Program-made: the position numbers and the translations under genes | Shown: piece by piece, positions 4,901-51,939 of the stretch | How positions within the stretch are numbered: position 1 is the stretch's first letter | How the letters are laid out: the number at the start of each line of letters is the position of its first letter | The notes under the pieces: generated by a model | Databases searched by the model: none | The model's input: only the letters and a program-made list of their open reading frames with translations | What the model was told of the DNA's origin: nothing | From: an uncultured Gammaproteobacteria bacterium | Lineage (GTDB): Bacteria; Pseudomonadota; Gammaproteobacteria; Arenicellales; JAANXG01 | Assembly: GCA_947259955.1 (NCBI GenBank) | Contig: CAMYOI010000053.1 | Location: 1-56,031 of the forward strand | Reading direction: 5' to 3' | DNA length: 56,031 bases

Positions 4901-5429
4901 TGGAAGGATTGAGCACCGGTATCATGGCGTCCATGAACGCGTACTCACTCTGGTGCGGCAACGTCGAGGATTTACAGGCGTGATCGTCACCCGCCACCGC
5001 CAGCACCCCGCCGTACTTGCTGGTGCCTTCCGCGTTGGCGTGCTTGAAAACGTCTCCGCTGCGGTCGACACCGGGGCCTTTACCGTACCACATACCAAAC
5101 ACGCCGTCGTAGCGCGCGCCCGGAAACAAGTTGGATTGCTGGCTTCCCCAGACGGCGGTTGCAGCCAGGTCCTCGTTTACACCCGGCTGGAAGCGGATAT
5201 GATTTTCTTCCACGAAGCGGCGCGCTTTCCAGAACTGCTGGTCGACGCCGCCCAGAGGAGAGCCGCGATATCCTGAAACAAAACCGGCCGTATTGAGTCC
5301 GTGGGCAACATCCGATTGACGCTGCAAAAGCGTCAATCGGACCAGCGCTTGTACCCCGGTGAGGTAGATGCGACCGGCGTCCAAAGCGTACTTGTCGTCC
5401 AGAGTGACGTTCGGATTCGCAAGTGCCAT
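1965..5429 (-). CDS. indolepyruvate-type 2-oxoacid:ferredoxin oxidoreductase, fused alpha/beta (IorA/IorB family)
   Basis: ORF track gives 1965..5498. I start at ATG 5429 (MALANPNVTLDDKY...), which is preceded by GGAGAA. The TPP-type N-terminus reads 'YLTGVQALVRL...GFVSGYRGSPLGG', with an internal Fe-S motif 'CEGCGDCSVQSNC'. Length is about 1150 aa. Confidence 0.9.
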   Translation of the reverse strand: MALANPNVTLDDKYALDAGRIYLTGVQALVRLTLLQRQSDVAHGLNTAGFVSGYRGSPLGGVDQQFWKARRFVEENHIRFQPGVNEDLAATAVWGSQQSNLFPGARYDGVFGMWYGKGPGVDRSGDVFKHANAEGTSKYGGVLAVAGDDHACKSSTLPHQSEYAFMDAMIPVLNPSNVQEILDFGIIGWALSRYCGCWVGMKTISETADSSASVHVGPERVHLHTPQDFTLPEGGLNIRLGVGPMEKEQMLHRHRLYAAMAFARANGLNKVVLDSPDPRMGIITTGKSYLDVRQALADLGIDADQAAGIGLRVLKVGMTWPLDSEMVRTFAQGLDEVLVVEEKRAVMENQLKEQLYNWEARYRPRVIGKFDESGEWILPSTAELSPARIARVIAGRLGRFHENADMAQRLAFLDEKERSLAKPRNIIQRTPYFCSGCPHNTSTRIPEGSEAGAGIGCHYMVTWMNRNTHTFTHMGGEGANWIGRAPFTQQTHLFQNLGDGTYFHSGHLAIRAAVAAGVNITYKILYNDAVAMTGGQPVDGALSVEGITHQLRGEGVQRIALVSDYPDKYGNRSVFADGVTIHHRDKLDHLQRELREVEGVSALIYDQTCAAEKRRRRKRGLMDDPPKRVFINELVCEGCGDCSVQSNCLSVVPVETEFGRKRMIDQSSCNKDYSCLKGFCPSFVTVHGGQPRKPAPKETSSLPELPMPNIADGSEPWNILITGVGGTGVVTIGAILGMAAHLDGKGCSVLDMTGLAQKYGAVTSHLRIANQPEDLESVRIAAGGANLLLGCDLVVAAGIDTLGKLDPARSYAVVNQHQSATAEAVRDPDAVFPAQQMRQLISDAVSSANVRFIDATRLARTLMGDAIASNLFIVGYAWQLGKIPVSLQAIERAIELNKVAVDFNKTALAWGRVAAHDPKYIEDQRNTKDLNDAPAKDIESILERRADFLCGYQSRKYAARYRRMIEKVIATENEATPGRRGFSKAVARSYFKLLAYKDEYEVARLFTEPRFMESIEAQFEGDFELELNLAPTWLGKPDKNTGLVTKRKFGPWILKLFRVLKMFKRLRGTYIDPFGYAGDRILERRLIREYEKMLDQLLAGLDQDNYQTATAIAELPMQIRGYGHVKLASAEKARTLQDQLWESFNDSERHQTAA

Positions 5430-5528: not shown

Positions 5529-6677
5529 ATGCCGGAATCGATATCGCAAAACTTGCGGGACCAGTTCGATCTGGTTGGAAGACCGATAGAGACGAGCGCG
5601 ACTCTGCCGCCGCTTTCGTATTCCGACAAGGCATTGTATGAATTCGAGCGGCAAGAGATCTTTCGTAAGTTGTGGGTCGGGATCGGCCGTGCCGACCGGT
5701 GGCGGCTGCCGGGAGACTATGCGGAGCTGGAGGTCGCGGGCGTGCCCGTTGTCGTATTGCGCAATGATTCCGGTGAACTCAGGGCGTTTGCGAACAGCTG
5801 CCGTCACAGAGGGGCGAAGCTCCTTGAGGGAGAGGGCAATTGCAGGGTTATCCGTTGCCCGTTCCATCGCTGGACGTACAGCCTCGACGGCAGGCTGATA
5901 GTGGCTCCCAAGATGGATCGGACCGCCGATTTCGATCTTGCCGACCATGCTCTGGTACCCGTCAGGGTAGGCACGAGTGAAGGATTCGCTTTCGTTTGCC
6001 TGGATGCGGATACGCCGGCTCTCGGGAAATGGCTCGGAGATTTCAGGGACCTGCACGACCCATGGGCGTTGTCGGAACTGGCCAGCACGCGCCGACGTGA
6101 ACTGGATGTTTCGTGCAATTGGAAACTCTTCCTGGAGATTTTCAACGAGTACTATCACCTGCCCTATGTCCATGCCGAAACATTGAACGGTCTGTACAAT
6201 GTGCCCCGGGATCCCGATCCCGTCGCTGGAAACTACGTTACCCAGTTTGGGTCCACCGAGGGTACCGGCGCGCTGCTCGCAAACAGCCAGGGGCACACTC
6301 TGCCCCGGATTCCCGGGTTGCCGGATAATGCCGCCAAAGGGACCCGTTATACATGGATATTTCCAAATATGTCGTTCGCCGCGGGAAGGGAATCGATCTG
6401 GGTCTACGAAGCCATTCCACTTGCCCCTGACCGGACGCGGGTGGGGATGACGGTCTGCTTTCCCCCGGGTACTGCGGCATGCGATGGTTTCGACAAGCAG
6501 GCCCGGGCGTACTATGAGCGGATGGATATTGCACTGGACGAGGACATCCCGGCCCTGGTCAATCAGCATCAGGGATTATGCTCACCGCTGGCGCGGCAGG
6601 GGCGATTTTGCTGTCTCGAACCGAGCGTGGCTGAATTTGCCTGCTGGTATACCGACACGATATTGGGGCGTCGATAA
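5529..6677 (+). CDS. Rieske [2Fe-2S] non-heme-iron oxygenase, alpha subunit type
   Basis: ORF track gives 5301..6677. I moved the start to ATG 5529 (MPESISQ...), because the upstream extension lies in the divergent promoter region and overlaps the ior gene 5' end. Rieske motif is 'CRHRGAKL...CPFHRW'. Mononuclear-iron motif is 'NWKLFLEIFNEYYHLPYVH'. Confidence 0.85.
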   Translation: MPESISQNLRDQFDLVGRPIETSATLPPLSYSDKALYEFERQEIFRKLWVGIGRADRWRLPGDYAELEVAGVPVVVLRNDSGELRAFANSCRHRGAKLLEGEGNCRVIRCPFHRWTYSLDGRLIVAPKMDRTADFDLADHALVPVRVGTSEGFAFVCLDADTPALGKWLGDFRDLHDPWALSELASTRRRELDVSCNWKLFLEIFNEYYHLPYVHAETLNGLYNVPRDPDPVAGNYVTQFGSTEGTGALLANSQGHTLPRIPGLPDNAAKGTRYTWIFPNMSFAAGRESIWVYEAIPLAPDRTRVGMTVCFPPGTAACDGFDKQARAYYERMDIALDEDIPALVNQHQGLCSPLARQGRFCCLEPSVAEFACWYTDTILGRR

Positions 6678-7895: not shown

Positions 7896-9530
7896 TCAGC
7901 CTTTGGCCACCCGGGCGAAATCGCGCAAATTTCGAGTGATGGACAGCAGACCCAGCGCAATAAACGTATACAAGACGGGATAAAACAGAAAATACAGCCT
8001 GATGGAAGACGAATACCCGGTCACCCTCAAAATTGCAAACATCACGAGTTGCACCAGGACCGTTCCGGCGATACCCAAATATAGCGCGTCCAGGTTGTTC
8101 AGCTTGCCCCGTCTCAGCACGGCGTAAAGCGCCAGGATCAGACCCACGACGGCTGTCCAGAACAGGGGCAGTGTAAACTTCGCGTACAGTTTGTGGATTT
8201 TGACGCTGTATTTCGTCTTGTTTTTTTTCATTCGGTAATAGAAATCGGGCGAGGTGCGGTCTCCCTCCTGCTCCGTCGCGCGCAACGGCGCATTTACCAG
8301 CTTCGATACGAACAACCGGTCTCGCGGCGTGCCGGTAGAATGAAAATCATGGATGGTCTGGTAGGACTCAATAGTGAGTGCCCTCTCCAGCACGCGCCAA
8401 AACGCATTGGGGAATCGTTCCATGTAGCCGGGGTGCCAGGGCGGCAGGAGTTCAAAGAGGGGATCGTCGCATTCGAATCTGCCTTTTTCGCAAGCACTTT
8501 CAATCTCCTGGCCGAGACGATCGTAATAATTCAATACAGCCTGTCCGCCCGCCTCGTAGTATCCTGCGTCGGCCACAGCGGACCTGAACTTCCAGGGCAG
8601 CATGAGGGAATGAATCGGCCTCCTGTTTTCCCGCTGCCCGTGATCCAGATCGAGTTCACCGCCGCTGGGCAGCGAATACAATTTGTCCAGGACGTCCGGT
8701 TGGGCGGCGTAGCGGGGATGCCATTGCTCCGCTTTGATGCCGATCAGATTACCAAAGGCGCGTTTGAACTGGGGCGTCTTGAGTTCGACCACCGCAAACA
8801 CACCATATTCATCGTGGTTTTTCCATGCAATAGCCAGCGTGCCCATGCCCCAGATGGCAAGCGGTATCAGAGTGAGCATGGCAATTTTCCCCCTTTGGCT
8901 GCCACCTTTGGACCCACGTTCCAGCCAAGCGTGAACAGCCATGATGGCAATCAGCCAGACGAACCACGGCACGATCCATAAACCCTCTTCACGGTTGTTG
9001 AAAAACAGCAACAGCATTCCCCCCAGCAGGACGCTGAGCCGCGCATTGACGCGCCGGAATTCGATGAAATCCATGAACAGGATGATCGACAGCGCTACCA
9101 GGCCCAGCACAAGCGGCTGGTGGAGCATCCCGCGAAACGCGGAAGCAATTGCCCCATAGTTGAACGTCGACGGGCTGAAATGCACTAGCGCGAATACGAA
9201 CAAAAGGTACCCGTTGCTCAAGGTCAACCTGCGAAACGCCAGCACGACCAGTATGCTTGCTCCCAGATACAATAGATGATGGGACATCAGCAACGGAATC
9301 CCGAGAACATTCATCAGGGCGATCCACATCGCCGTGGCTGGGCCCTTCATCAGGGTGTACTCGGAGTAGGGGCCGAGCCACTCTCCTTCCAGCAGGTAGA
9401 TGGCCTGATTGATGAAAACCAGGGTGTCGTGCTGCAAATGGGTCAAGGATAAAAATGGCCACCAGCCTACCAGCGATAACTTGAACAGGGCCAGCACGGC
9501 GACCAGGAACCAGAACAGCTTGTCAGACAT
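7896..9530 (-). CDS. large polytopic membrane protein of unknown function (architecture reminiscent of lipid-carrier-dependent glycosyltransferases)
   Basis: 544-aa ORF. The N-terminal ~230 aa and the C-terminal ~70 aa are strongly hydrophobic and flank a soluble middle domain. I recognise no family signature. Confidence 0.65.
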   Translation of the reverse strand: MSDKLFWFLVAVLALFKLSLVGWWPFLSLTHLQHDTLVFINQAIYLLEGEWLGPYSEYTLMKGPATAMWIALMNVLGIPLLMSHHLLYLGASILVVLAFRRLTLSNGYLLFVFALVHFSPSTFNYGAIASAFRGMLHQPLVLGLVALSIILFMDFIEFRRVNARLSVLLGGMLLLFFNNREEGLWIVPWFVWLIAIMAVHAWLERGSKGGSQRGKIAMLTLIPLAIWGMGTLAIAWKNHDEYGVFAVVELKTPQFKRAFGNLIGIKAEQWHPRYAAQPDVLDKLYSLPSGGELDLDHGQRENRRPIHSLMLPWKFRSAVADAGYYEAGGQAVLNYYDRLGQEIESACEKGRFECDDPLFELLPPWHPGYMERFPNAFWRVLERALTIESYQTIHDFHSTGTPRDRLFVSKLVNAPLRATEQEGDRTSPDFYYRMKKNKTKYSVKIHKLYAKFTLPLFWTAVVGLILALYAVLRRGKLNNLDALYLGIAGTVLVQLVMFAILRVTGYSSSIRLYFLFYPVLYTFIALGLLSITRNLRDFARVAKG

Positions 9531-9634
9531 TGTTGTATTATTCCTTATTCAACCCCGTTTTGTCGCGTACAAGAAGCGTGTGGATAATATGGGCAGTACC
9601 AGGCGGCAACAGGGCCAATAGACGGGATCAGGTC

Positions 9635-10414
9635 ATGACCGATATTCACGTAAATGAATACAATGAAAATGTAACGGCCATGCTGGAACTGGTGTGGGGG
9701 CGCGGATTTATGGCACCCGGTGGGGAAGGCAATGTTCACCGCATCGTAGAAGGGATCGATCTCACCGACCGGACGGTGCTCGAAATAGGCTCGGGCACCG
9801 GAGGAGGCGCTTTGGTTCTGGCGGGACAGTACGGCGCCCGCGTTATTGGTTTGGAAGTTGAGGCACCGCTGATCGATCGCGCCAGAAAGTACGCGTCCGA
9901 GGCCGGTCTCGATGACCGTGTGGAGTTCAGGCTGGTCAAACCCGGGCCGCTCATGATCGATGACGGCGGCATCGATATCGTCTACAGCAGCGGGGTAATT
10001 ATCCATATAGAAGACAAACCGGCGTTGTTCAACGACGTGCTTCGCGTGTTGAAACCGCGCGGTATATTTACCGCATATGACTGGCTCAAGGGCCCCGGCC
10101 CGCTTAGCCCCGCCATGCACGAGTGGATCCGGCTCGAAGAGCTGACATTCTATCTGGACACCCTGGACAGCTATGAAAAAGCGCTCGCCGAATGCGGATT
10201 TTTAGAGGTGGCCACCCGGGATGCATCGGACTGGTACGCCGATGAAGCGAAACGCGAATATGAGCGGATGAACGAGCCGCTATACGATCAGATCACGGAT
10301 CTGGTGGGGGCTCAGTCGCGGGACCACTTCCTGAAGGACTGGGGCGCAATGGTGCGCGTGCTGCAAAGCGGAGAACTCCGTTCAGGTTATTTCCGGGGTA
10401 CCAAGCCGGGGTGA
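9635..10414 (+). CDS. class I SAM-dependent methyltransferase
   Basis: ORF track gives 9530..10414. I moved the start to ATG 9635 (MTDIHVNEYNENV...). SAM motif I is 'VLEIGSGTGGGALVLA', and the post-I/II regions include 'DIVYSSGVIIHI'. Confidence 0.8.
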   Translation: MTDIHVNEYNENVTAMLELVWGRGFMAPGGEGNVHRIVEGIDLTDRTVLEIGSGTGGGALVLAGQYGARVIGLEVEAPLIDRARKYASEAGLDDRVEFRLVKPGPLMIDDGGIDIVYSSGVIIHIEDKPALFNDVLRVLKPRGIFTAYDWLKGPGPLSPAMHEWIRLEELTFYLDTLDSYEKALAECGFLEVATRDASDWYADEAKREYERMNEPLYDQITDLVGAQSRDHFLKDWGAMVRVLQSGELRSGYFRGTKPG

Positions 10415-26867: not shown

Positions 26868-27899
26868 ATGATGAGAAACCTGCCACCAAATCCGATGCTG
26901 GATGCCTTTCAAAGGCCGATCCACGATCTGCGTATTTCGGTCACGGACCGGTGCAATTTCCGCTGTGTTTACTGTATGCCGAAACATGTTTTCGGGCCCA
27001 ATTATCCCTTCCTCAAACGATCACAATTGCTGACATACGAGGAGATCGAGCAGGTGGCGCGTGTATTCGTGCGACTCGGTGTCCGCAAGCTTCGGCTGAC
27101 CGGGGGGGAGCCTCTGGTCAGAAACGATATCGAGTCACTGATCGAGAAACTGGCATCGATAGACGGTGTCCAGGACGTCAGTCTGACGACAAACGGTTCC
27201 CTGCTAACGCGGAAAAAGGCCGAGAAATTGTATAGCGCCGGCCTTCGGCGGATCACCGTCAGTCTGGATTCCATAGACGGAGAGACGTTCCAATCGATGA
27301 ATGGTGTCGATTTCGCGCCGGAGCCCGTTCTCGAGGCAATCGATACCGCCGCCGACGTTGGACTTACCCCGTTGAAAATCAACATGGTCGTAAAGCGGGG
27401 AGTCAACGACAACGCGGTGCTCTCGGCGGCACGGCGTTTCAGGGGCACCGGGCACATACTCAGGTTCATCGAATACATGGATGTCGGCAACAGCAATGCC
27501 TGGCGCGAGAACGAGGTAATATCTGCAGCGGAAATCAGGGATATTATCGGCCGGGAATTTCCCATTGAACCGGTCACACCCGACTATCACGGTGAAGTCG
27601 CTCAGAGGTGGCGTTACACGGACGGCGAGGGTGAGCTGGGGATCATTGCATCCGTATCGCAACCATTCTGCGGGTCATGCACGCGGGCCCGACTTTCAGC
27701 GGATGGATCGCTCTATACCTGCTTATTCGCCACCAAAGGGCACGATCTGCGATCGCTGTTGCGGGAAGGCATATCGGAAGAGGGCCTGTTCGAGAGGGTT
27801 AAATCGATATGGTCGGCGCGGTCCGATCGCTATTCGGAATTGCGGGCGACTCAGGTGGTTGAAATTCCCAAGATCGAAATGTCCTACATCGGAGGCTGA
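26868..27899 (+). CDS. moaA: GTP 3',8-cyclase (molybdenum cofactor biosynthesis protein A)
   Basis: The radical-SAM motif is 'DLRISVTDRCNFRCVYCMP'. The C-terminal second-cluster motif is 'SQPFCGSCTRARLSADG'. Length is 343 aa. Confidence 0.9.
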   Translation: MMRNLPPNPMLDAFQRPIHDLRISVTDRCNFRCVYCMPKHVFGPNYPFLKRSQLLTYEEIEQVARVFVRLGVRKLRLTGGEPLVRNDIESLIEKLASIDGVQDVSLTTNGSLLTRKKAEKLYSAGLRRITVSLDSIDGETFQSMNGVDFAPEPVLEAIDTAADVGLTPLKINMVVKRGVNDNAVLSAARRFRGTGHILRFIEYMDVGNSNAWRENEVISAAEIRDIIGREFPIEPVTPDYHGEVAQRWRYTDGEGELGIIASVSQPFCGSCTRARLSADGSLYTCLFATKGHDLRSLLREGISEEGLFERVKSIWSARSDRYSELRATQVVEIPKIEMSYIGG

Positions 27900-30928: not shown

Positions 30929-31686
30929 CTACTGGCGCTGGCTTGGCACCTGCATTGGCACCCCGGTGTTCATCACAGCCTCATAGAATTCCAGCGCCTT
31001 GTATTCTGCGCTCTGCGGCTTGAAAGGCTTGGCGCGCACCTGTTTGTTGCAGCCGTCGTAGCGCCGGTGCACGGTGCCCCAGGGCTTGCCAGCAACCGCC
31101 CATTTGGTGCGGTATACCGGGAAGCCGGTCGTGTGCCCCAGCCCGGCGCTCAATACGTCGCCCCGTATGCTCTTGCCGGCGCTGTGTACATGGCAGTCGG
31201 CGCAGGCAAAGTTCAACTGCCCGCGCTTGGTCCAGTAGAACTCCTTGCCCTTTTCATACCACTCCCTGGCGCCGTCCGAAGAGACCTCGATGACCATTTT
31301 TTCGCCGTTGAACTGTTCCTTGAATGCCGCCACCAGGCGCGCGATCTTGCCATTTTTGAGGTTCGCGATCGGTTTCTCGCCGTTGGCTTCCAGGCACGCA
31401 TTGATGTCGGCCTCGATCGTGCGGATATCGTTGGTGGCCACATCATAGTAGGGGTACTTGTTGGCCGGCGGCTTGTCGCTGAAACAGTCGTCAAAGGTTT
31501 TGCCATTGGCGAAGGGCGTCGACCATTCTTCCCGCGCCGTCTCCATCTCCAGCTCGTACGGGGGGAACTCCATGAGGATTTCCCAGTTGGCGCGGCGGTG
31601 CGCATATTGGGGCAGGGCGTTGACGCCGTCCTTGTATTCTTCCAGCGTAGAAGGATCGAAGCCGTACTGAGTGCCGTCTTTTTCAT
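30929..31686 (-). CDS. soxA: SoxA, monoheme cytochrome c subunit of SoxXA; 5' end anomalous (see findings)
   Basis: It has a single heme motif 'CADCH', and 'RRYDGCNKQV' supplies the distal Cys ligand. The N-terminal domain lacks a heme site ('DDCFSDK'). The well-placed ATG 31686 (RBS AGGGG, 17 nt after the soxZ stop) is one nucleotide out of frame with the conserved body, which reads ...HEKDGTQYGFDPSTLEEYK.... Confidence 0.8.
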
Positions 31687-31703
31687 GAGTTGTACCCCTG
31701 ATG

Positions 31704-32018
31704 CTACTTAACCGTGGCTTCGGCGCCGCCGGTCTCGCCCATATTGTCCTTCCAATCAACGTTGATCTTGTCACCGGCTTTTGCGCCCTTCACGTTGATG
31801 CCGATCAGGGGGTCTTTCGATACACCCTGCCCCAGCACCGCTTCGGCGACGGTCGAACCATTCAATTTAAAGGTCATGACTTCAATGAAATGGGCGGGGA
31901 TGGCTTCCCCGGTTTTCTTGTCTTTGCGGAGACCGGTCTCCATGGGATGTTTCACGAGGCAGAGTACTTCATGCCCGCCCTCTCCCGTTTTGACTTTCAT
32001 CTTCGTGGTAAATGCCAT
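31704..32018 (-). CDS. soxZ: sulfur-carrier complex subunit SoxZ
   Basis: 104 aa, immediately downstream of soxY. The sequence looks like a beta-sandwich (MAFTTKMKVKTGEGGHEVLCLVKHPMETG...KINVDWKDNMGE), as in SoxZ. Confidence 0.88.
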   Translation of the reverse strand: MAFTTKMKVKTGEGGHEVLCLVKHPMETGLRKDKKTGEAIPAHFIEVMTFKLNGSTVAEAVLGQGVSKDPLIGINVKGAKAGDKINVDWKDNMGETGGAEATVK

Positions 32019-32054
32019 AATTCTTTCTCCAATTTCGTCTAAAAAACCGACGGA

Positions 32055-32510
32055 TCAGCCGCCGCATCCGCCTACGGTTACCTTGATCTCCTGGGCTGCC
32101 ATATGGACCTTGCCCCCGGCCTTCACGTAGGCGGCAACTTTCGATGTCTGTCCCATCTTGATGCGCGCGCTGTACAGGCCGCCGCTGGCGCCGGGCTGCA
32201 GGTTTACCGAAGTGATGAACGGCGACGGGTTTTTTTCCACGACGATAGAGATGGATTCCGCATCAGCCAGCGTGGTCGTCACCTTGATCGGCACCACGGC
32301 GCCGTTTTCCGCCTGCAGAGGGGCTTTGATCGAAACACCCCCGCTTTCAGCAACCGGTGCATCACCAAATAAGGCCTTCACGACATCGGGCTCACTTTCG
32401 AGCTCGAAGAGCGCTTTTGGCCATTCCATCGCCATGGACACGACGGATTTCAGCAAGCCGAATCCGCTTGCGCATAGGGCCATCCCTGTCAAGAACAATC
32501 TACGGTTCAT
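32055..32510 (-). CDS. soxY: sulfur-carrier protein SoxY
   Basis: Tat-type signal is MNRRLFLTGMALCASG. The invariant C-terminal swinging-arm motif 'VTVGGCGG*' is present. Confidence 0.92.
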   Translation of the reverse strand: MNRRLFLTGMALCASGFGLLKSVVSMAMEWPKALFELESEPDVVKALFGDAPVAESGGVSIKAPLQAENGAVVPIKVTTTLADAESISIVVEKNPSPFITSVNLQPGASGGLYSARIKMGQTSKVAAYVKAGGKVHMAAQEIKVTVGGCGG

Positions 32511-32576
32511 TTTGATATACCTCTGGGAATTACGAGTAAACTGCGGGTATCACGATCAATCCGAAAACCAGGCACG

Positions 32577-33017
32577 CTAAATCGACAGAAGGAATTCGAC
32601 AATGTTATCGATGTCTTCCTCGGAAATGATCTTGTGTTTTCCGAACGGCGGCATGACAGCTTGCGGATTCACCAACTGCGCGTCATAGATCTGGGTGCGC
32701 AATTTTGCCGTGTCCGGATAGCGTTGTTTCATGGCCACCAATGGAGGGGCGACGCTGCCTCCGGGTGGAAACGCCGTCGGCCACTTATCGGTTACTATGA
32801 TATGACAAGCCAGGCAGTTGCCCTGGCGCCTGTTTATTGCTACACACCAGCCTTTGGTTTTGGCATCAGGATTCTCCAGGCTGGAACACTGCTTTTCGGT
32901 GGGCAGGAAGTCTCCGGTCTCAGCGATGCCGGTAGTCGTATGGCCAACGATAAGAAGCGTGAGCACGCTTATCGCGATGCCGGCGCGAAGGAATAAATTC
33001 ATCATCCGCATCCTCAT
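32577..33017 (-). CDS. soxX: SoxX, monoheme cytochrome c
   Basis: It has a signal peptide, the heme motif 'CLACH' and the Met ligand region 'MPPFG'. It is the first gene of soxXYZAB. Confidence 0.88.
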   Translation of the reverse strand: MRMRMMNLFLRAGIAISVLTLLIVGHTTTGIAETGDFLPTEKQCSSLENPDAKTKGWCVAINRRQGNCLACHIIVTDKWPTAFPPGGSVAPPLVAMKQRYPDTAKLRTQIYDAQLVNPQAVMPPFGKHKIISEEDIDNIVEFLLSI

Positions 33018-33283
33018 TGGATTGGTAATATTTATGGCCCACAGTGTACTGTCTGTGGCAGTCAGGTTTCAACACACCCGTTGGACCACGACGAAGACAG
33101 GAGGGATAATTTGGCTATCTCTTCTGAGATAGTCAGCCGATCGCCTACCGATTTTACGGAGTTCCAATTATTTTCGATTGTGCCGAACCTAAACGGGCCT
33201 CGGTCCCGTAAAATGCTACAATCCTGGATTTTACAGGATGCAGCTGAGGCATGGCGTTTTTTTTGTGTATTGGAGGATATTAG

Positions 33284-33585: not shown

Positions 33586-33624
33586 AATAGTCCATATCAA
33601 TCGATACTATATATCAATCGACGT

Positions 33625-33688
33625 ATACTACGTTGTAGAAATACTACGTTGTAGAAATAGTCAGTTATAGAAATAGTCAGTTGTAGAA
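33625..33688. repeat. four tandem 16-bp units (ATACTACGTTGTAGAA x2, ATAGTCAGTTATAGAA, ATAGTCAGTTGTAGAA) overlapping the 3' end of gene 33677..34030
   Basis: Read directly from the sequence. The units occupy 33625-40, 33641-56, 33657-72 and 33673-88. They sit in an AT-rich island within a GC-rich window. Confidence 0.9.
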
Positions 33689-34207: not shown

Positions 34208-34414
34208 CTAGCGCCTCGATTCCTTTTCCTTGTGTGCCATTTCCAGTAACTGGTTGGCTTTCTCCGCGTACTCACCGGCATATCCCGCCAGCGGGTGGTC
34301 GCTTTCTGGGTTGAAATAGTCTTCCACGTCGATACCTTTATCGTGTTCGTAGGCGATGAACTTCTTCTGCATCTCGATCAGCGACTGGATCAGCTTTTGT
34401 TTCTCGGTTGTCAT
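34208..34414 (-). CDS. small hypothetical protein (68 aa)
   Basis: MTTEKQKLIQSLIEMQKKFIAYEHDKGIDVEDYFNPESDHPLAGYAGEYAEKANQLLEMAHKEKESRR. Composition is protein-like. It is co-oriented with the Cas6-like gene and 67 nt downstream of it. Confidence 0.55.
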   Translation of the reverse strand: MTTEKQKLIQSLIEMQKKFIAYEHDKGIDVEDYFNPESDHPLAGYAGEYAEKANQLLEMAHKEKESRR

Positions 34415-34481: not shown

Positions 34482-35189
34482 TCACTCTTCTGTAAACCGA
34501 TTCACCGCGGATATGGATTTGTGCGGAACGAACAGGCCGCAGCCCAGTGTTCTGGCCTTGCCCAGTCCGGTCTCCTGGATTCGGATCGAATCCGCTGCCG
34601 GTATGTCGGCCAGCATCAGGCTTCGCGCGAGCAGTTCTCCTCGCGGTGTATTGATTTTACTCAACCGGCCGGGCAGCCGCTTCGGAACCGAGACATTCAA
34701 CTCGGTAAGCTCTTCGTCGATCCGGTCGAGAAACCTTTGCTCTTTTTCATCTTCCCTGGTGACGATGCGCCTTGCAAAGAGTGTGGAGGCCGGGCCGAGT
34801 TCCCTGACCTTGATACTCCCCAGCCTAACTTCGGCGTCGGCGACGGTTAGCGTTTGGCCACTCAAACCGGTGCACTGGCTGATCCTGTCTCGGGGGATTC
34901 TAAGGATCAGTCTGACCCTTCGCGATGGGTGAATGACGCCGCCTCCATGACCCTCCGGCCTTTGCCACCCGTTGCCGGATTCGGCCCCGTGGATGGCATG
35001 AATACCGGTGTTTTCTGCGGTCGAGAACCACGGCAGAAAGGATTCCAAGGACGTCAACAGTGAATACGCGTGATCGACCGGCAGATGCGAGCAATCGATG
35101 CGGAACGCCATGTCCACAATACTTTTCGAGCGGTATTGTGGTTCGGCTTCGTCCGCCTCTTGCCAGTACAGGTTTTCCCCCTCTGCCAT
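34482..35189 (-). CDS. Cas6/Cmx6-like RAMP-superfamily protein (orphan; no CRISPR array nearby)
   Basis: ORF track gives 34482..35237. ATG 35189 gives MAEGENLYWQEADE.... 'IVDMAFRIDCSHLPVDHAYSLLTSLESFLPW' and the C-terminal glycine-rich loop 'GLGKARTLGCGLFVPHK' match my recollection of type I-MYXAN Cas6/Cmx6 proteins. This needs HMM confirmation. Confidence 0.55.
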   Translation of the reverse strand: MAEGENLYWQEADEAEPQYRSKSIVDMAFRIDCSHLPVDHAYSLLTSLESFLPWFSTAENTGIHAIHGAESGNGWQRPEGHGGGVIHPSRRVRLILRIPRDRISQCTGLSGQTLTVADAEVRLGSIKVRELGPASTLFARRIVTREDEKEQRFLDRIDEELTELNVSVPKRLPGRLSKINTPRGELLARSLMLADIPAADSIRIQETGLGKARTLGCGLFVPHKSISAVNRFTEE

Positions 35190-35191
35190 GA

Positions 35192-35798
35192 TTATTGATC
35201 CGGCAGCTCGGATTGTATGGTGTCTCGGTCTATCCACCAGTTGTCCTGAACCAGCGCTTCAATGATGCGGCGCAGCCGGCTCAGGAATCCGTTGACGTCG
35301 TTTAGTTCCAGCCTGTCTACCCAGGCATCGAGATCGGCCTGGTTCTCTATGCCGCTATGTCGTCGAGCGACCGCCGTGAGCATTTGTCGGGTGCCGACGC
35401 TGAGTGCGTCGTGTTGTGCATCTTCCGCGCGCAGATCGACGATGTAGATCGCGGTCGCCCCAGATGCCCTGCCCAAGAGCCGCCAGTGAGAGCGGTTGTT
35501 CTGATCTGAACATCAGCTCGCAGGCATGCGCCGCGTTTTGCCATTGTTGTTCACGGACACTGGCTTCAAATACGTTCTTGGCACAGTCCCACGCATCGGT
35601 CATCCGTTCCAGCTCGACAAGAAGGCTACCCTCTTCGAGGAGCAGATCCATACGATTTTCGCCGTCGCCGGCCGCGGATGTTTCCCTGATGCGGTCCCGT
35701 ATCGCATGAAGCCTGCCCTCCGCAGCCTGGACCGAGGTGCGAGCATCCTGTCCGCTCTCCGCGCCCAGGTCTATGCGAACGTCCAGATGCTTCACCAT
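35192..35798 (-). CDS. hypothetical protein, apparently one ~200-aa gene split by a 1-nt frame change at a G-run near 35460 (alternatively two small genes)
   Basis: ORF 35355..35798 turns into Arg-rich junk after '...LSLAALGQGIW'. ORF 35192..35476 (TTG start) continues sensibly with 'GATAIYIVDLRAEDAQHDAL...'. The junction lies at ...GGCATCTGGGGCGACC.... The TAA stop is 2 nt from the Cas6-like ATG. Confidence 0.5.
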
Positions 35799-35820: not shown

Positions 35821-36801
35821 TTACCAGGACGGCCGGGTCCCGGGTATGCGTTTATAAAAGCGCGCGCGGTATATCAGCCTCTGCGCGGCATCGGAATCCC
35901 CGTTCACGAAACCGGATCTACGGTGCAGCACATTGTTGCAGATGACTCCCTGCCCGGATTCGAGCTTATGGGTCACGGTGTAGCGGGAAGCCTGCTCGAT
36001 AACGTCCTTCAGGCATCTGGCGGCTTCCGTGATATGCGGATCGGGGTTCCACATGATGTTGTGCCGTCTCCCGGTGTAGCGCATGTGCAGGGCGCCTGAC
36101 TCCGGGTCAATGGAGAATACCGGGCCGGTTCTGCTGAATTGTCGATCAACGGTCTGGTCGGAATCCGGCGGGATGGTGAACGCCGAGGGATTGGATAGAG
36201 TCACCGGCAACGACTCGTCGATCTCGTGCAGCAAAAGAAATACGACATCCGGATCGATAAATGCATTCTCTCCGCCCTGCGGAGCCGGTGTAACGCAATG
36301 CAGGATAAAACTGCGTATCACCCTGCCCGAACAGTTTCCATAGTAATACCCGTCGGTATGCCAGCCAAGCGGCCGGTCCGTGTACGGTATGTATCTCGGG
36401 CGGTCCCCCTGCTGGCAGACCTGAACGGAAGATATGTTGTCGTCATCGGCGCAAAAATTGTGATCGGTCCGACCGATACCGAGCTGCAGGCCAAGGATAC
36501 CGAGATCGGTCTTTTGAAATGAATTCGAACGGGTCTGATAGATGACGAAATTGAATTCCGTCAGCCTGCGCAGCAATTCGGATCGCTCGGTGGAACTCAG
36601 GTATCGAGGATCGCGGATTTCGACGATCGATCCTACCGGTGACCTTTCATAGTGACCCAGTTTGCATTCCACACGACTGACCATCGACAGGATTGCTTTC
36701 GGACCGGTTAAAAACCGTCCAGGTCCCTCCGGTTGCGCGGACGGATCGACGCCGGCGCTGACTGAGTGATTCTGGTACTCCTGCTTCATCGCTCTGCGCA
36801 T
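35821..36801 (-). CDS. TauD/TfdA-family Fe(II)/2-oxoglutarate-dependent dioxygenase-like protein
   Basis: 326 aa. 'LGWHTDGYYY' supplies the HxD iron ligands, and the distal 'NVLHRRSGF' is typical of the family. It is transcribed divergently from dsrA. Confidence 0.7.
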   Translation of the reverse strand: MRRAMKQEYQNHSVSAGVDPSAQPEGPGRFLTGPKAILSMVSRVECKLGHYERSPVGSIVEIRDPRYLSSTERSELLRRLTEFNFVIYQTRSNSFQKTDLGILGLQLGIGRTDHNFCADDDNISSVQVCQQGDRPRYIPYTDRPLGWHTDGYYYGNCSGRVIRSFILHCVTPAPQGGENAFIDPDVVFLLLHEIDESLPVTLSNPSAFTIPPDSDQTVDRQFSRTGPVFSIDPESGALHMRYTGRRHNIMWNPDPHITEAARCLKDVIEQASRYTVTHKLESGQGVICNNVLHRRSGFVNGDSDAAQRLIYRARFYKRIPGTRPSW

Positions 36802-37077
36802 ACGGTTGATTTATTGGTCTGCCGGACAAGCCAATGGTATTACAACTTCAACATTTGGACAGTACCTCTTGAGGTAGGCGCGAACCGGAACAAAGGGATA
36901 TTGCCGGGGCCGCCAGCGGACGCTATCTCTTAAGTAATAGAGTTTTTCGGGGTGTCCCCCTCGGTCAGGAGGGTGCATCCGGAACCTGCTGCGAATAGAA
37001 TTCCTAACCTGCTGGTGGGCAGCCGCTGTGAATGCCTGCCCATGGTCAAAATCCTACCAACCACAGGAGGCAGGTAG

Positions 37078-38340
37078 ATGTCGGACAAGCACCCCACCCC
37101 AATGCTCGACGAGCTGGAAAACGGTCCCTGGCCGAGTTTCGTCTCGGGAATCAAGCGCCTTCGAGACCAGCACGACGACGAGCGGATCAACGGTATGGCG
37201 AACGATCTGCTGGGTCAGCTCGAGCATTCGTACGAAACCAGGAAGGGTTACTGGAAGGGAGGAACGGTCAGCGTATACGGCTACGGGGGCGGCATCATCC
37301 CCAGGTTCTCGGAGGTAGGCAAGCAGTTTCCGGAGTCCAGGGAATTTCACACGCTTCGGGTGCAGCCGCCCGCGGGCAACCACTACAGTACGGACATCCT
37401 TCGGCAGCTTGCCGACAGTTGGGAGAAGTGGGGCTCGGGGCTTGTCACTTTCCACGGCCAGACCGGCAACATCATGTTCATAGGTTCGAGTACCGAAAAT
37501 ACGCAACACTTCTTCGACGAGATCAACGAATACGGCTTCGATCTGGGTGGCGCCGGACCGTGTGTTCGCACCTCCATGTCCTGTGTAGGCGCCGCCCGGT
37601 GCGAACAGTCCTGCGCGAATGAGCACAAGATCCACCGCACGCTGGTGAATAATTTTACCGACGATGTCCACCGGCCGGCGCTTCCGTATAAATTCAAATT
37701 CAAAGTATCGGGCTGTCCCAACGATTGTACGAACTCGATCGAACGCGCGGATTTTGCGGTGATCGGGACTTGGCGCGATGACATCAAGATCGACCAGCAG
37801 GTATTCGGGGAATACGTTGGCACCAAGGGCCGGCAGCACGTCATAGACAACATAATCACACGCTGTCCCACCAAGTGCATGACATTGAAGGATGATGACA
37901 CACTGGAGATAGACAACCGGAACTGCGTCAAGTGCATGCATTGCCTGAATGTCGTACCGAAGGCGCTTTCCCCCGGCGATGACAAGGGCATCACGCTGCT
38001 TCTTGGTGGAAAACGTACGCTGAAAATAGGTGATCTGATGGGCACCGTGGTCGTTCCGTTCATGAAGTTGGAGACAGACGAAGACTATGAACGCCTGGTC
38101 GAGATTGCCGAGGAAACAATAGATTTCTGGGCGGAAAATGGGCTCGAACACGAGCGCTGCGGAGAGATGATCGAACGTATCGGGCTGGTCAATTTCCTGG
38201 AGGGTGTGGGCATCGATGTCGATCCCAACATGATCAGTCATCCCCGTGAAAGCTCATACGTTCGAATGGATGGCTGGGACCAGGAAGCTCAAAAATGGTT
38301 TCATCGTAAGATCGATGAGCGCCAGGCGGCGGCGGAGTAG
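37078..38340 (+). CDS. dsrA: reverse-type dissimilatory sulfite reductase, alpha subunit
   Basis: RBS is GGAGG. Siroheme/[4Fe-4S] Cys motifs are 'CVRTSMSCVGAARCEQSC' and 'SGCPNDCTNS'. The ferredoxin insert is 'CPTKCM...CVKCMHCLN'. Length is 420 aa. Confidence 0.95.
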   Translation: MSDKHPTPMLDELENGPWPSFVSGIKRLRDQHDDERINGMANDLLGQLEHSYETRKGYWKGGTVSVYGYGGGIIPRFSEVGKQFPESREFHTLRVQPPAGNHYSTDILRQLADSWEKWGSGLVTFHGQTGNIMFIGSSTENTQHFFDEINEYGFDLGGAGPCVRTSMSCVGAARCEQSCANEHKIHRTLVNNFTDDVHRPALPYKFKFKVSGCPNDCTNSIERADFAVIGTWRDDIKIDQQVFGEYVGTKGRQHVIDNIITRCPTKCMTLKDDDTLEIDNRNCVKCMHCLNVVPKALSPGDDKGITLLLGGKRTLKIGDLMGTVVVPFMKLETDEDYERLVEIAEETIDFWAENGLEHERCGEMIERIGLVNFLEGVGIDVDPNMISHPRESSYVRMDGWDQEAQKWFHRKIDERQAAAE

Positions 38341-38396
38341 CGTGGACTTCCAAATGAATGACCTGCGACCGGTTTCTATAATTGTGGAGATGCTCA

Positions 38397-39473
38397 ATGG
38401 CTAAGAAAGAGATGCGACGGCCCATCGAGTCGGGCTGCCCGGACGGGCTCCAGTACATGCACCCCGTCATGCTCAAGAACTTCGGCCAGTGGAAGTACCA
38501 TGACCACCCCCGGCCCGGGGTACTGCGGCACGTTGCCCACAGCGGAGATACGGTCTGGACGGTCAAGGCGGGCACGCAGCGCATCCTCGATGTATTTACC
38601 CTGCGTAAACTGTGCGACATTGGGGATAAATATGCGGACGGCCACGTTAGGTTCACCATTCGCTCGAATATCGAGTACATGGTGAGCGACGAGGTTAAAG
38701 TCGAGCCCCTCATCGCCGCGCTCGAGGACGCCGGGTTCGTGGTAGGCGGCACCGCTAATTCGGTGGCGATGATCTCGCACACCCAGGGTTGGCTGCACTG
38801 CGACATTCCAGGCACCGACGCGTCCGGCGTGGTGAAAGCGATGATGGATGAACTCATCGAAGAGTTCAAAAACTGCAACATGCCGAATCGGGTCCATATC
38901 ACCACATCCTGCTGCCAGATCAACTGCGGCGGGCAGGGTGACATCGCAATCAACGTTCAGCACACCAAGCCCCCGAAGATCAACCACGACCTGGTCGCCA
39001 ATGTTTGTGAGCGGCCATCCGTCGTGGCGCGCTGCCCGGTGGCGGCGATACGACCGGCGATGGTCAACGGCAAGCCGTCTCTCGAGGTTGACGAAATAAA
39101 ATGTATTTGCTGCGGCGCTTGTTATCCGCCCTGTCCGCCGATGCAGATCAACGATCCTGAGCACTCCAAGCTTGCAATCTGGGTCGGCGGCAATCATTCC
39201 AATGCCAGATCCAAACCGAGCTTCCAGAAACTCGTTGCGGGCGGTGTGCCGAATAATCCGCCGCGCTGGCCTGAGGCGACCTTGATCGTAAAGCGCATCC
39301 TCAAGGTATACAAAGACGATGCCAAGGACTGGGAGCGCATCAACGATTGGATAGACCGCATAGGGTGGCCAAGGTTTTTCGAGCTGACCGGATTGCCTTT
39401 CACCAAGTTCCACATAGACAACTGGCGCGGCTCTCGCAAAAGCCTCAACGCGTCGACCCACATCCGTTTCTAG
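38397..39473 (+). CDS. dsrB: reverse-type dissimilatory sulfite reductase, beta subunit
   Basis: ORF track gives 38382..39473. ATG 38397 gives MAKKEMRRPIESG.... Motifs are 'TTSCCQINCGGQGD' and 'CPVAAIRP...CICCGACYPPCP'. Confidence 0.95.
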   Translation: MAKKEMRRPIESGCPDGLQYMHPVMLKNFGQWKYHDHPRPGVLRHVAHSGDTVWTVKAGTQRILDVFTLRKLCDIGDKYADGHVRFTIRSNIEYMVSDEVKVEPLIAALEDAGFVVGGTANSVAMISHTQGWLHCDIPGTDASGVVKAMMDELIEEFKNCNMPNRVHITTSCCQINCGGQGDIAINVQHTKPPKINHDLVANVCERPSVVARCPVAAIRPAMVNGKPSLEVDEIKCICCGACYPPCPPMQINDPEHSKLAIWVGGNHSNARSKPSFQKLVAGGVPNNPPRWPEATLIVKRILKVYKDDAKDWERINDWIDRIGWPRFFELTGLPFTKFHIDNWRGSRKSLNASTHIRF

Positions 39474-51847: not shown

Positions 51848-51939
51848 CTCGATTCTCTGTTGTTGTGTCTTAATCTACCGAAGACACTACCTCATATCCA
51901 CCTAAACCAAAATCCATATATCTTATGACGGGATAAGCG

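Follow-up and report, generated by a model that had tools for sequence, protein, structure and literature searches.

What does a Cas6 family gene do between the sox and dsr gene clusters of a gammaproteobacterium when, to our knowledge, Cas6 is known only as the enzyme that processes CRISPR RNA (crRNA) in CRISPR-Cas systems? The question is raised by contig CAMYOI010000053.1 of an uncultured member of the Arenicellales, analyzed here over positions 1 to 56,031, a stretch of 56,031 nucleotides (nt; hereafter, the window). A minus-strand open reading frame (ORF) at positions 34482 to 35189 lies between soxXYZA (30929 to 33017, minus strand; SoxY is identifiable via GGCGG at its C-terminus) and dsrAB on the plus strand, in agreement with a preliminary description of the locus. 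That description, made from the sequence alone, presented the ORF as a solo Cas6/Cmx6-like gene translationally coupled to a non-Cas partner in a 2-gene module. The identity of the gene and its separation from CRISPR-Cas are borne out below, whereas the 2-gene module gives way to a larger operon. We are highly confident that the corresponding clade of Cas6-like proteins has left CRISPR-Cas and is now a fixed part of an operon that is accessory to the oxidative Dsr pathway in Gamma- and Betaproteobacteria. The full explanation that we prefer, which adds an RNA-directed accessory role to this identity and context, has a probability of about 0.5.

A Cas6 family protein outside CRISPR-Cas

The ORF begins with the ATG at 35189 and encodes a product of 235 amino acids (aa), which contains both of the peptide stretches quoted previously. 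An alternative GTG start at 35237 is possible and would lengthen the ORF; the 235-aa form is backed by the homologues and by an independent gene call on L081, a Logan contig that encodes an identical Cas6-like protein and shares approximately 99% nucleotide identity with the window. Searches with hidden Markov models (HMMs) upheld the proposed Cas6/Cmx6 assignment: the protein matches PF09559 over profile positions 1 to 191 of 191 (E = 1.1e-58; 198.9 bits, with a cut-off of 26.7) and TIGR02807 (cas6_cmx6) with 137.1 bits, above the equivalog cut-off of 98.85. The sole significant sequence match in the PDB, extending over the full length, is 8fcj_B, the Cas6 subunit of a type I-B Cascade from a CRISPR-associated transposon (E = 1.2e-7). 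An AlphaFold2 (AF2) model generated with 61 homologues as input (predicted local distance difference test [pLDDT], 86.6; predicted template modeling score, 0.81) displays 2 tandem ferredoxin-like (RNA recognition motif) domains, as in solved Cas6 structures. Foldseek places the same chain, 8fcj_B, at the top of the list (E = 3e-16; template modeling [TM] score, 0.73/0.79), followed by Cas6 and Cas6e chains from Pyrococcus, Thermus and Sulfolobus, with ranks 1 to 39 being all occupied by Cas6 or Cas6e chains. The glycine-rich loop highlighted in the preliminary description is indeed present, in the form G208-x-G210-x5-G216-C-G218-L-F. Because the HMM scores, the sequence match to 8fcj_B and the Foldseek ranking agree, the protein can be securely considered a genuine member of the Cas6/Cmx6 family with a Cas6 fold.

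The claim that the window contains neither a repeat-spacer array nor any other cas gene also stands. Tandem Repeats Finder returned only short low-copy repeats, a k-mer-based array detector, which picks up the 10 repeats of the control array in L084, found nothing, and Rfam at gathering thresholds produced 0 matches in the whole window. When PADLOC was run on 50 non-overlapping window ORFs, the Cas models matched were those of Cas6 only, all on the Cas6-like ORF, and phmmer searches with 2 full I-MYXAN Cas3/Cas8/Cas7/Cas5/Cas4-1/Cas2 sets yielded no match in the window and no I-MYXAN cas homologue in 84 loci carrying a solo gene. The k-mer detector flagged repeats in only 2 of the 82 solo loci scanned (L009 and L031), both of which proved to be simple tandem repeats lacking spacers, located more than 6 kb from the Cas6-like gene. 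Judged by operon content and by array, the window gene does not belong to a CRISPR-Cas system.

The CRISPR-linked relatives present a different picture. A tblastn search against plasmids recovered cyanobacterial Cmx6 only, at 24% to 31% identity, with the annotated context cas6-cas3-cas8-cas7(DevR)-cas5-cas4/cas1-cas2, and phmmer detected the full cas operon in 9 of 9 cyanobacterial control loci. The 9 CRISPR-linked sequences form a clade of their own in a neighbor-joining tree. Compared with Cas6/Cmx6 of the I-MYXAN/I-B systems (8FCJ chain B and WP_012599599 of Gloeothece PCC 7424), the solo proteins belong to the same Pfam/TIGRFAM family, adopt the same fold (TM, 0.73 to 0.79) and share the Asp-His motif before helix 1 as well as the G-x-G-x5-G-C-G-hydrophobic-F loop, but are only 21% to 31% identical in sequence. 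Furthermore, whereas the CRISPR-linked proteins are basic and come with the full cas operon, the solo clade is acidic, has no cas3/8/7/5/4-1/2 or array nearby, and is set apart by an extra loop (residues 68 to 81), an invariant His223-Lys224 pair and the synteny and co-divergence with dsrAB described below. A Cas7/DevR profile was also searched against 185,579 species genomes; among the best 80 of 457 matches, none of the assemblies with a solo gene was present, the carriers being Cyanobacteria, Acidobacteriota, Myxococcota, Planctomycetota and similar groups, which suggests that I-MYXAN Cas7 and the solo gene reside in separate taxa.

A conserved operon divergent from dsrAB

The genomic context was compared across 80 genome loci encoding relatives at 34% to 95% identity, all from Gamma- and Betaproteobacteria; the fractions given here refer to this sample rather than to all genomes. 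Most of the loci come from known sulfur oxidizers, including Arenicellales, Thiotrichaceae, Thiomargarita, Parabeggiatoa, Ectothiorhodospiraceae, Halorhodospira, Thiobacillus, Gallionellaceae, Sulfuritalea, Rubrivivax and others. Neighbors were counted with iterated HMM searches on the ORFs of these loci. The dsrAB genes are located divergently upstream in 50 of the 80 loci, a TauD-like gene stands beside the Cas6-like gene in equally many, and a protein of approximately 65 aa, denoted sm66 in gammaproteobacteria and DUF6967 in betaproteobacteria, is encoded directly upstream in 60. Same-strand operon clustering revealed a DsrC-like protein of approximately 113 aa directly downstream in 39 loci, and a homologue of another small protein, dn68, is encoded downstream in 29. 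At least 1 operon partner was found in 77 of the 80 loci.

The recurrent gene order is TauD-like, the approximately 65-aa protein (sm66/DUF6967), with or without a gene that we call X, Cas6-like, a DsrC-like protein without cysteines and a helical protein of 67 aa, to which rhodanese or TusA is sometimes added. The same arrangement emerged from Pfam-annotated contigs reached independently via the Cas6-like protein, via X and via distant cluster representatives: dsrKMCHFEBA occupies one strand, and TauD, the approximately 65-aa protein, (X), Cas6, the DsrC-like protein and the 67-aa protein or rhodanese diverge from it. The betaproteobacterial order is DUF6967, Cas6-like, (TusA), DsrC-like, (rhodanese), a 201-aa protein and TauD. 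In loci without dsrAB within 8 kb, the small protein and the Cas6-like protein are still encoded together, beside unrelated genes. The gamma sm66 and beta DUF6967 families occupy the same operon position and have a common RF-x-x-D-V/I-x-P...W motif; judging from these features, they may be homologous, with their profiles aligning by hhalign over 22 columns only (E = 0.013; probability, 3%).

The window carries this dsr-associated accessory operon, as defined here, in a reduced form, with tauD, X (broken), the Cas6-like gene and dn68 diverging from dsrAB. Neither sm66 nor the extra DsrC-like gene was found anywhere in the 56 kb, and the small upstream protein is likewise missing at the Cas6-like gene in L081 and in L001 (JAHEIO010000076), which is 93% to 95% identical to the window at the nucleotide level. 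Since the larger operon divergent from dsrAB is the conserved context, the position of the Cas6-like gene between sox and dsr is no accident but a defining feature.

The DsrC-like protein of the operon (for example, L094:8463-8801, L096:8530-8868 and L063:3156-3515) matches PF04358 and TIGR03342. It shares these families with DsrC/TusE and has a C-terminal arm of equal length, but lacks either functional cysteine: the true DsrC of the window ends in ...KQACKYAGLPKPTGCV (GLPKPTGCV), whereas the operon version ends in ...KQGGRIAGLPESRRKGGY (GLPESRRKGGY) or ...GLPKPFGKGGY. Because both cysteines are replaced, the protein is predicted to be unable to hold a persulfide or trisulfide and, going by its sequence, is best described as a conserved cysteine-less DsrC look-alike. 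An RNA-thiolation relay, in which sulfur would pass from rhodanese via TusA and a TusE-like protein to RNA held by Cas6, was considered and ruled out, since the DsrC/TusE-like protein of the operon has no cysteine.

Two loci contain additional genes. In the gammaproteobacterial contig L086 (9746 to 12908), 3 more 2-oxoglutarate-Fe(II) oxygenase genes (PF13640) and an acetyltransferase gene lie directly downstream of the operon, which hints at an oxygen- or hydroxylation-related theme. In L180 (4804 to 8096), where there is no dsrAB within 7 kb, a sub-module encoding a 61-aa protein, an X-like protein of 231 aa, the Cas6-like protein and the DsrC-like protein is preceded by a gene for a class-V aminotransferase resembling cysteine desulfurase.

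Evolution and spread of the solo clade

CRISPR-Cas modules are typically patchy in distribution. Across 40 loci, distances between DsrA sequences correlate strongly with distances between Cas6-like sequences (Mantel r = 0.755, with 0 of 5000 permutations as high) after the removal of alignment columns with at least 10% gaps; without trimming, spurious N-terminal extensions of the stop-to-stop ORFs depressed r to 0.24. The Cas6-like gene thus travels with the dsr locus, with its product evolving approximately 2 times faster than DsrA. The gene is nonetheless under purifying selection: for the window copy, the ratio of non-synonymous to synonymous substitution rates (dN/dS) is 0.28 in the comparison with L001, and 4 synonymous and 0 non-synonymous differences separate it from L081. 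Among 1.84 billion cluster representatives at 50% identity, 1007 matched at E ≤ 1e-3 and 146 at E ≤ 1e-30, and 2 representatives near the latter boundary that were checked are both located in the same type of operon. The clade is therefore large, with at least 146 clusters at 50% identity, and its carriers include Arenicellales, Thiotrichaceae, Ectothiorhodospiraceae, Acidiferrobacterales, Thiobacillus, Gallionellaceae and others.

Gene X and other features of the window

The junction upstream of the Cas6-like gene is as previously described, with a TAA ending 2 nt before the ATG (CAA TAA TC ATG; junction TAATCATG). The ORF ending there, at 35192 to 35476, had been taken for a gene of its own; it is instead the 3' remnant of X, which is intact in 2 related contigs. 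In the window, X is split into 2 overlapping ORF pieces (35355 to 35798 and 35192 to 35476), both of which align to a single ORF of approximately 235 aa in 10 related loci. Relative to L081 and L001, the window lacks 101 nt at 35459/35460, resulting in a frameshift in X, and the microhomology at the junction of the deletion amounts to only 1 to 2 nt. The gap represents either true pseudogenization or an assembly error; if the deletion is real, the translational coupling of X to the Cas6-like gene has been lost in this genome. The proposed module of 2 coupled genes does not hold, as X is broken here and is found alongside the Cas6-like gene in only 10 of the 80 loci; what co-occurs with the latter is the larger operon divergent from dsr.

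X has 1172 homologues, none of which matches a Pfam family, and those that bear a name are called hypothetical. Its AF2 model (pLDDT, 86.6) is an all-helical repeat resembling the tetratricopeptide repeat (TPR) and has no match in the PDB at E < 0.01. A hidden Cas subunit or a member of the repeat-associated mysterious protein superfamily is ruled out by this all-alpha, TPR-like model. The small protein dn68 belongs to no Pfam or NCBIfam family. The features of the operon and its surroundings are listed in Table 1.

Table 1. Positions of the operon genes, their divergent neighbors and the palindromes in the window.
Feature	Position	Strand	Basis
Cas6-like protein, solo dsr-linked clade, 235 aa	34482..35189	-	PF09559, TIGR02807, AF2/Foldseek, dN/dS
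Gene X, TPR-like, all-alpha, 235 aa when intact, broken in the window	35192..35798	-	Alignment to L081 and L001
TauD/TfdA-family Fe(II)/2-oxoglutarate dioxygenase, first gene of the operon	35821..36801	-	PF02668, E = 4.6e-18; HxD motif in translation
dn68, small helical protein, 68 aa, last gene of the operon	34208..34414	-	Homologues downstream in 29 of 80 loci
tauD-dsrA divergent intergenic region, holding palindrome TACCTCTTGAGGTA at 36863-36876	36802..37077	.
dsrA (37078-38340) and dsrB (38382-39473), divergent neighbor	37078..39473	+	NIR_SIR Pfam matches
Palindrome sites upstream of sulfur oxidation operons	36863-36876 (tauD/dsrA), 33116-33131 (soxX/tusA), 51919-51935 (sat)
Palindrome sites inside coding sequence	5352-5366, 5956-5969

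Several other PADLOC matches were obtained in the window. The viperin (pVip) model matches an ORF of the radical S-adenosylmethionine type at 26868 to 27899, probably the MoaA-type (Mob_synth_C) ORF of the Pfam scan, and the mad2 model matches 9530 to 10414. Matches to TIR-effector and PycC models in the bulk scan were assigned to no ORF among the 20 that were re-scanned, and may come from the ORF at 639 to 1919, which encodes a cyclic nucleotide-binding/SpoIIE phosphatase protein. No complete defense system is apparent among the pVip, mad2, TIR and PycC matches in the window.

Palindromes upstream of sulfur genes

A palindrome of the class TAYCYB-N2-5-VRGRTA occurs at 5 sites in the window, compared with 0.73 expected (Table 1). 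Up to 260 nt upstream of dsrA, it is found in 32 of 53 loci, compared with 0.4 expected, in the form TATCTC-N4-GGGATA in gammaproteobacteria and CCTACCCG-AT-CGGGTAGG in betaproteobacteria, with a second inverted repeat, CCCC-N3-5-GGGG(A)ATGG, following approximately 25 to 30 nt later. We considered the palindrome as an RNA target of the Cas6-like protein and rejected this possibility. Because it is absent near the Cas6-like gene in loci without dsrAB, and because pairing of the copy upstream of sat is limited to G-T on the strand opposite this gene, we read it as a DNA element, probably the operator of a sulfur-regulon transcription factor.

A different kind of repeat is present between tusA and the gene for a SoxAX-binding protein-like product, where positions 33609 to 33688 contain 4 tandem copies of the 16-nt unit ATACTACGTTGTAGAA, with further 17-nt repeats at 33587 to 33620. 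The tandem copies may constitute a regulatory array.

What the Cas6-like protein may do

The residues common to the solo and CRISPR-linked sets are F29, L36, D39, H40, L44, R97, F153, Q205, G208 and G210, along with G216-C217-G218, F220 and P222, with G208, G210, G216-C217-G218 and F220 being invariant in both. D39 and H40 are conserved in 97% and 88% of the solo set, respectively, and in 100% of the CRISPR-linked set, and the motif that they form is placed at the N-terminus of helix 1; the catalytic His of PfCas6 and TtCas6 is located at the start of helix 1. Other residues are specific to the solo clade, namely, H64, R91, E150, G174 and the His223-Lys224 pair straight after the glycine-rich loop, and 21 columns are invariant across 61 sequences. 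The extra loop of residues 68 to 81 (approximately 34947 to 34988) corresponds to a GAESGNGWxRPE insertion which is nearly invariant in the gamma members, absent from CRISPR-linked Cmx6 and modeled with a pLDDT below 50; the insertion is a candidate loop for contacts with a partner or a substrate. Solo proteins are acidic to neutral, with a median isoelectric point (pI) of 6.2 (6.4 for the window protein) versus 9.3 for CRISPR-linked Cmx6.

Recognition of an RNA stem-loop is suggested because the Asp39-His40 motif, Arg97 and the glycine-rich loop have been kept and His223-Lys224 has been added, and an accessory or regulatory role for Dsr because of the divergent arrangement and the nature of the partners, which are a cysteine-less DsrC-like protein, a TPR-like scaffold and a dioxygenase dependent on 2-oxoglutarate and O2. 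The role that we favor is that of an RNA-binding accessory or regulatory factor for Dsr. The Cas6-like protein would recognize, and perhaps cut, a specific RNA stem-loop, and would act as a post-transcriptional or assembly factor for sulfur oxidation transcripts, probably in complex with the small protein and other products of the operon. The partners possibly point to the post-transcriptional option. Taken by itself, an RNA-directed mechanism is a tentative proposal to which we give somewhat less than an even chance. A more specific version, in which a domesticated Cas6 endoribonuclease and its operon partners bind or cut a hairpin, recognized by both sequence and structure, in sulfur oxidation transcripts and thereby tune dsr, and possibly also sox and sat, to sulfur and oxygen, is doubtful.

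Several observations weigh against RNA as the target or limit the case for it. Hairpins are not enriched in the 130 nt upstream of dsrA when 56 loci are compared with shuffled sequences (median z, −0.7; z < −2 in 12.5% of the loci); an nhmmer search with 4 intergenic regions of the window against all loci matched the 2 closest relatives only; and Rfam recognized no RNA family in the window. The low pI is atypical of an RNA-binding Cas6, His40 is a putative catalytic residue by virtue of its position, and the loop of residues 68 to 81 could instead serve as a protein-protein interface. Judging from their families, all operon neighbors are of sulfur-trafficking or oxygenase type and none is related to RNA metabolism. 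Finally, the 80 loci underlying the synteny were retrieved via peptide patterns from the window protein itself.

Many of these observations are accommodated if the Cas6 fold was kept as a scaffold while RNA binding was lost, so that the protein would be an adaptor or chaperone working with the small protein, X, the DsrC-like protein and the TauD-like dioxygenase, with modulation of DsrC or DsrAB and sensing of oxygen or 2-oxoglutarate as possible roles. An acidic clade with an invariant, flexibly modeled loop of its own would fit such a function, as would a TPR-like repeat in X, which is typical of protein-binding scaffolds, partners such as DsrC-like, TusA, rhodanese and TauD proteins, and the failure of the Rfam, intergenic nhmmer and dsrA-leader searches to reveal an RNA motif. 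However, the Asp-His motif, Arg97 and the whole glycine-rich loop have been kept over the Gamma/Beta divergence, as expected for RNA recognition or catalysis, and we regard the loss of RNA binding as possible but rather unlikely. Another reading is a toxin-antitoxin-like pair in which the small acidic upstream protein would neutralize a Cas6-like endoribonuclease, and it is this pair that is encoded together in 60 of the 80 loci and is all that is left where dsrAB is not nearby. Yet the window and its closest relatives do without the small protein, no PADLOC or NCBIfam toxin-antitoxin model scores above noise, and the Cas6-like gene is one of several in a longer metabolic operon and is co-inherited vertically with dsrAB (Mantel r = 0.755) rather than sporadic; it does not behave as the obligate 2-gene, sporadic and mobile unit that defines type II systems. 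Such a pair is accordingly improbable.

Two further explanations would tie the gene to CRISPR-Cas after all. A canonical Cas6 could act in trans for a cas6-less I-MYXAN/I-B locus elsewhere in the genome, of which 56 kb were inspected, and a protein exceeding the TIGR02807 equivalog cut-off would suit that task. This is very improbable because the synteny of the solo gene with dsrAB extends over 50 of 80 genomes from 2 classes, and because the gene co-diverges with DsrA and is disjoint in its taxonomic spread from I-MYXAN Cas7, the best 80 of whose 457 homologues include none of the solo-gene assemblies; moreover, all 9 canonical loci have cas6 at the head of their cas operon, and the solo proteins branch apart from the CRISPR-linked ones, differ from them in pI and carry an inserted loop. 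Alternatively, the gene might be left over from a CRISPR-Cas locus that has been lost, now functionless and in decay, as the disruption of the adjacent X could suggest. The Cas6-like ORF is nevertheless intact, its differences from L001 and L081 are those of a constrained gene (dN/dS of 0.28 with the former, none non-synonymous with the latter), 21 residues are invariant in 61 sequences, and the operon context recurs in 2 proteobacterial classes. On these sequence comparisons, conservation effectively refutes decay, which is the least probable of all the explanations considered.

Relation to known systems and implications

An RNA-binding role of the kind favored here would have a counterpart in the dsr operon of Allochromatium vinosum, where, according to the Dahl laboratory, the small accessory proteins DsrR and DsrS reportedly affect dsr expression post-transcriptionally. 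The fold of DsrR is IscA-like. Like the Cas6-like protein, the two are dsr-encoded non-enzymatic proteins proposed to control the expression of Dsr rather than to take part in catalysis; they differ in having folds unrelated to that of the Cas6-like protein and in being encoded within the dsr operon rather than divergently from it, and the Cas6-like protein is known from sequence and a model. In line with the impression given in the preliminary description that such a protein had not been characterized, we found no account of the solo Cas6-like clade or its operon in the searchable full-text literature. A preprint on the first UBA868 Arenicellales isolate to be brought into culture refers to rdsrAB and to a dioxygenase of the TauD/TfdA family, which is read there as an enzyme of taurine degradation, and makes no mention of a Cas6-like gene.

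The fold and family are known, while the context is new, conserved and non-immune, and the re-use of Cas6 outside immunity, tied to the reverse-Dsr pathway of sulfur oxidation, is well supported. Consequently, the name "type I-MYXAN CRISPR-associated protein Cas6/Cmx6" is misleading in thousands of database entries, and CRISPR surveys of such genomes will over-call. For the study of Dsr, the operon adds an overlooked set of 6 accessory genes, including that for the cysteine-less DsrC look-alike, in hosts that are cultivable. If the Cas6-like protein still binds RNA, it would be an example from nature of a Cas protein co-opted to regulate host genes, and an RNA regulator of this kind would give Cas6 its first cellular function independent of CRISPR, in sulfur oxidizers that are abundant worldwide in marine and freshwater habitats.

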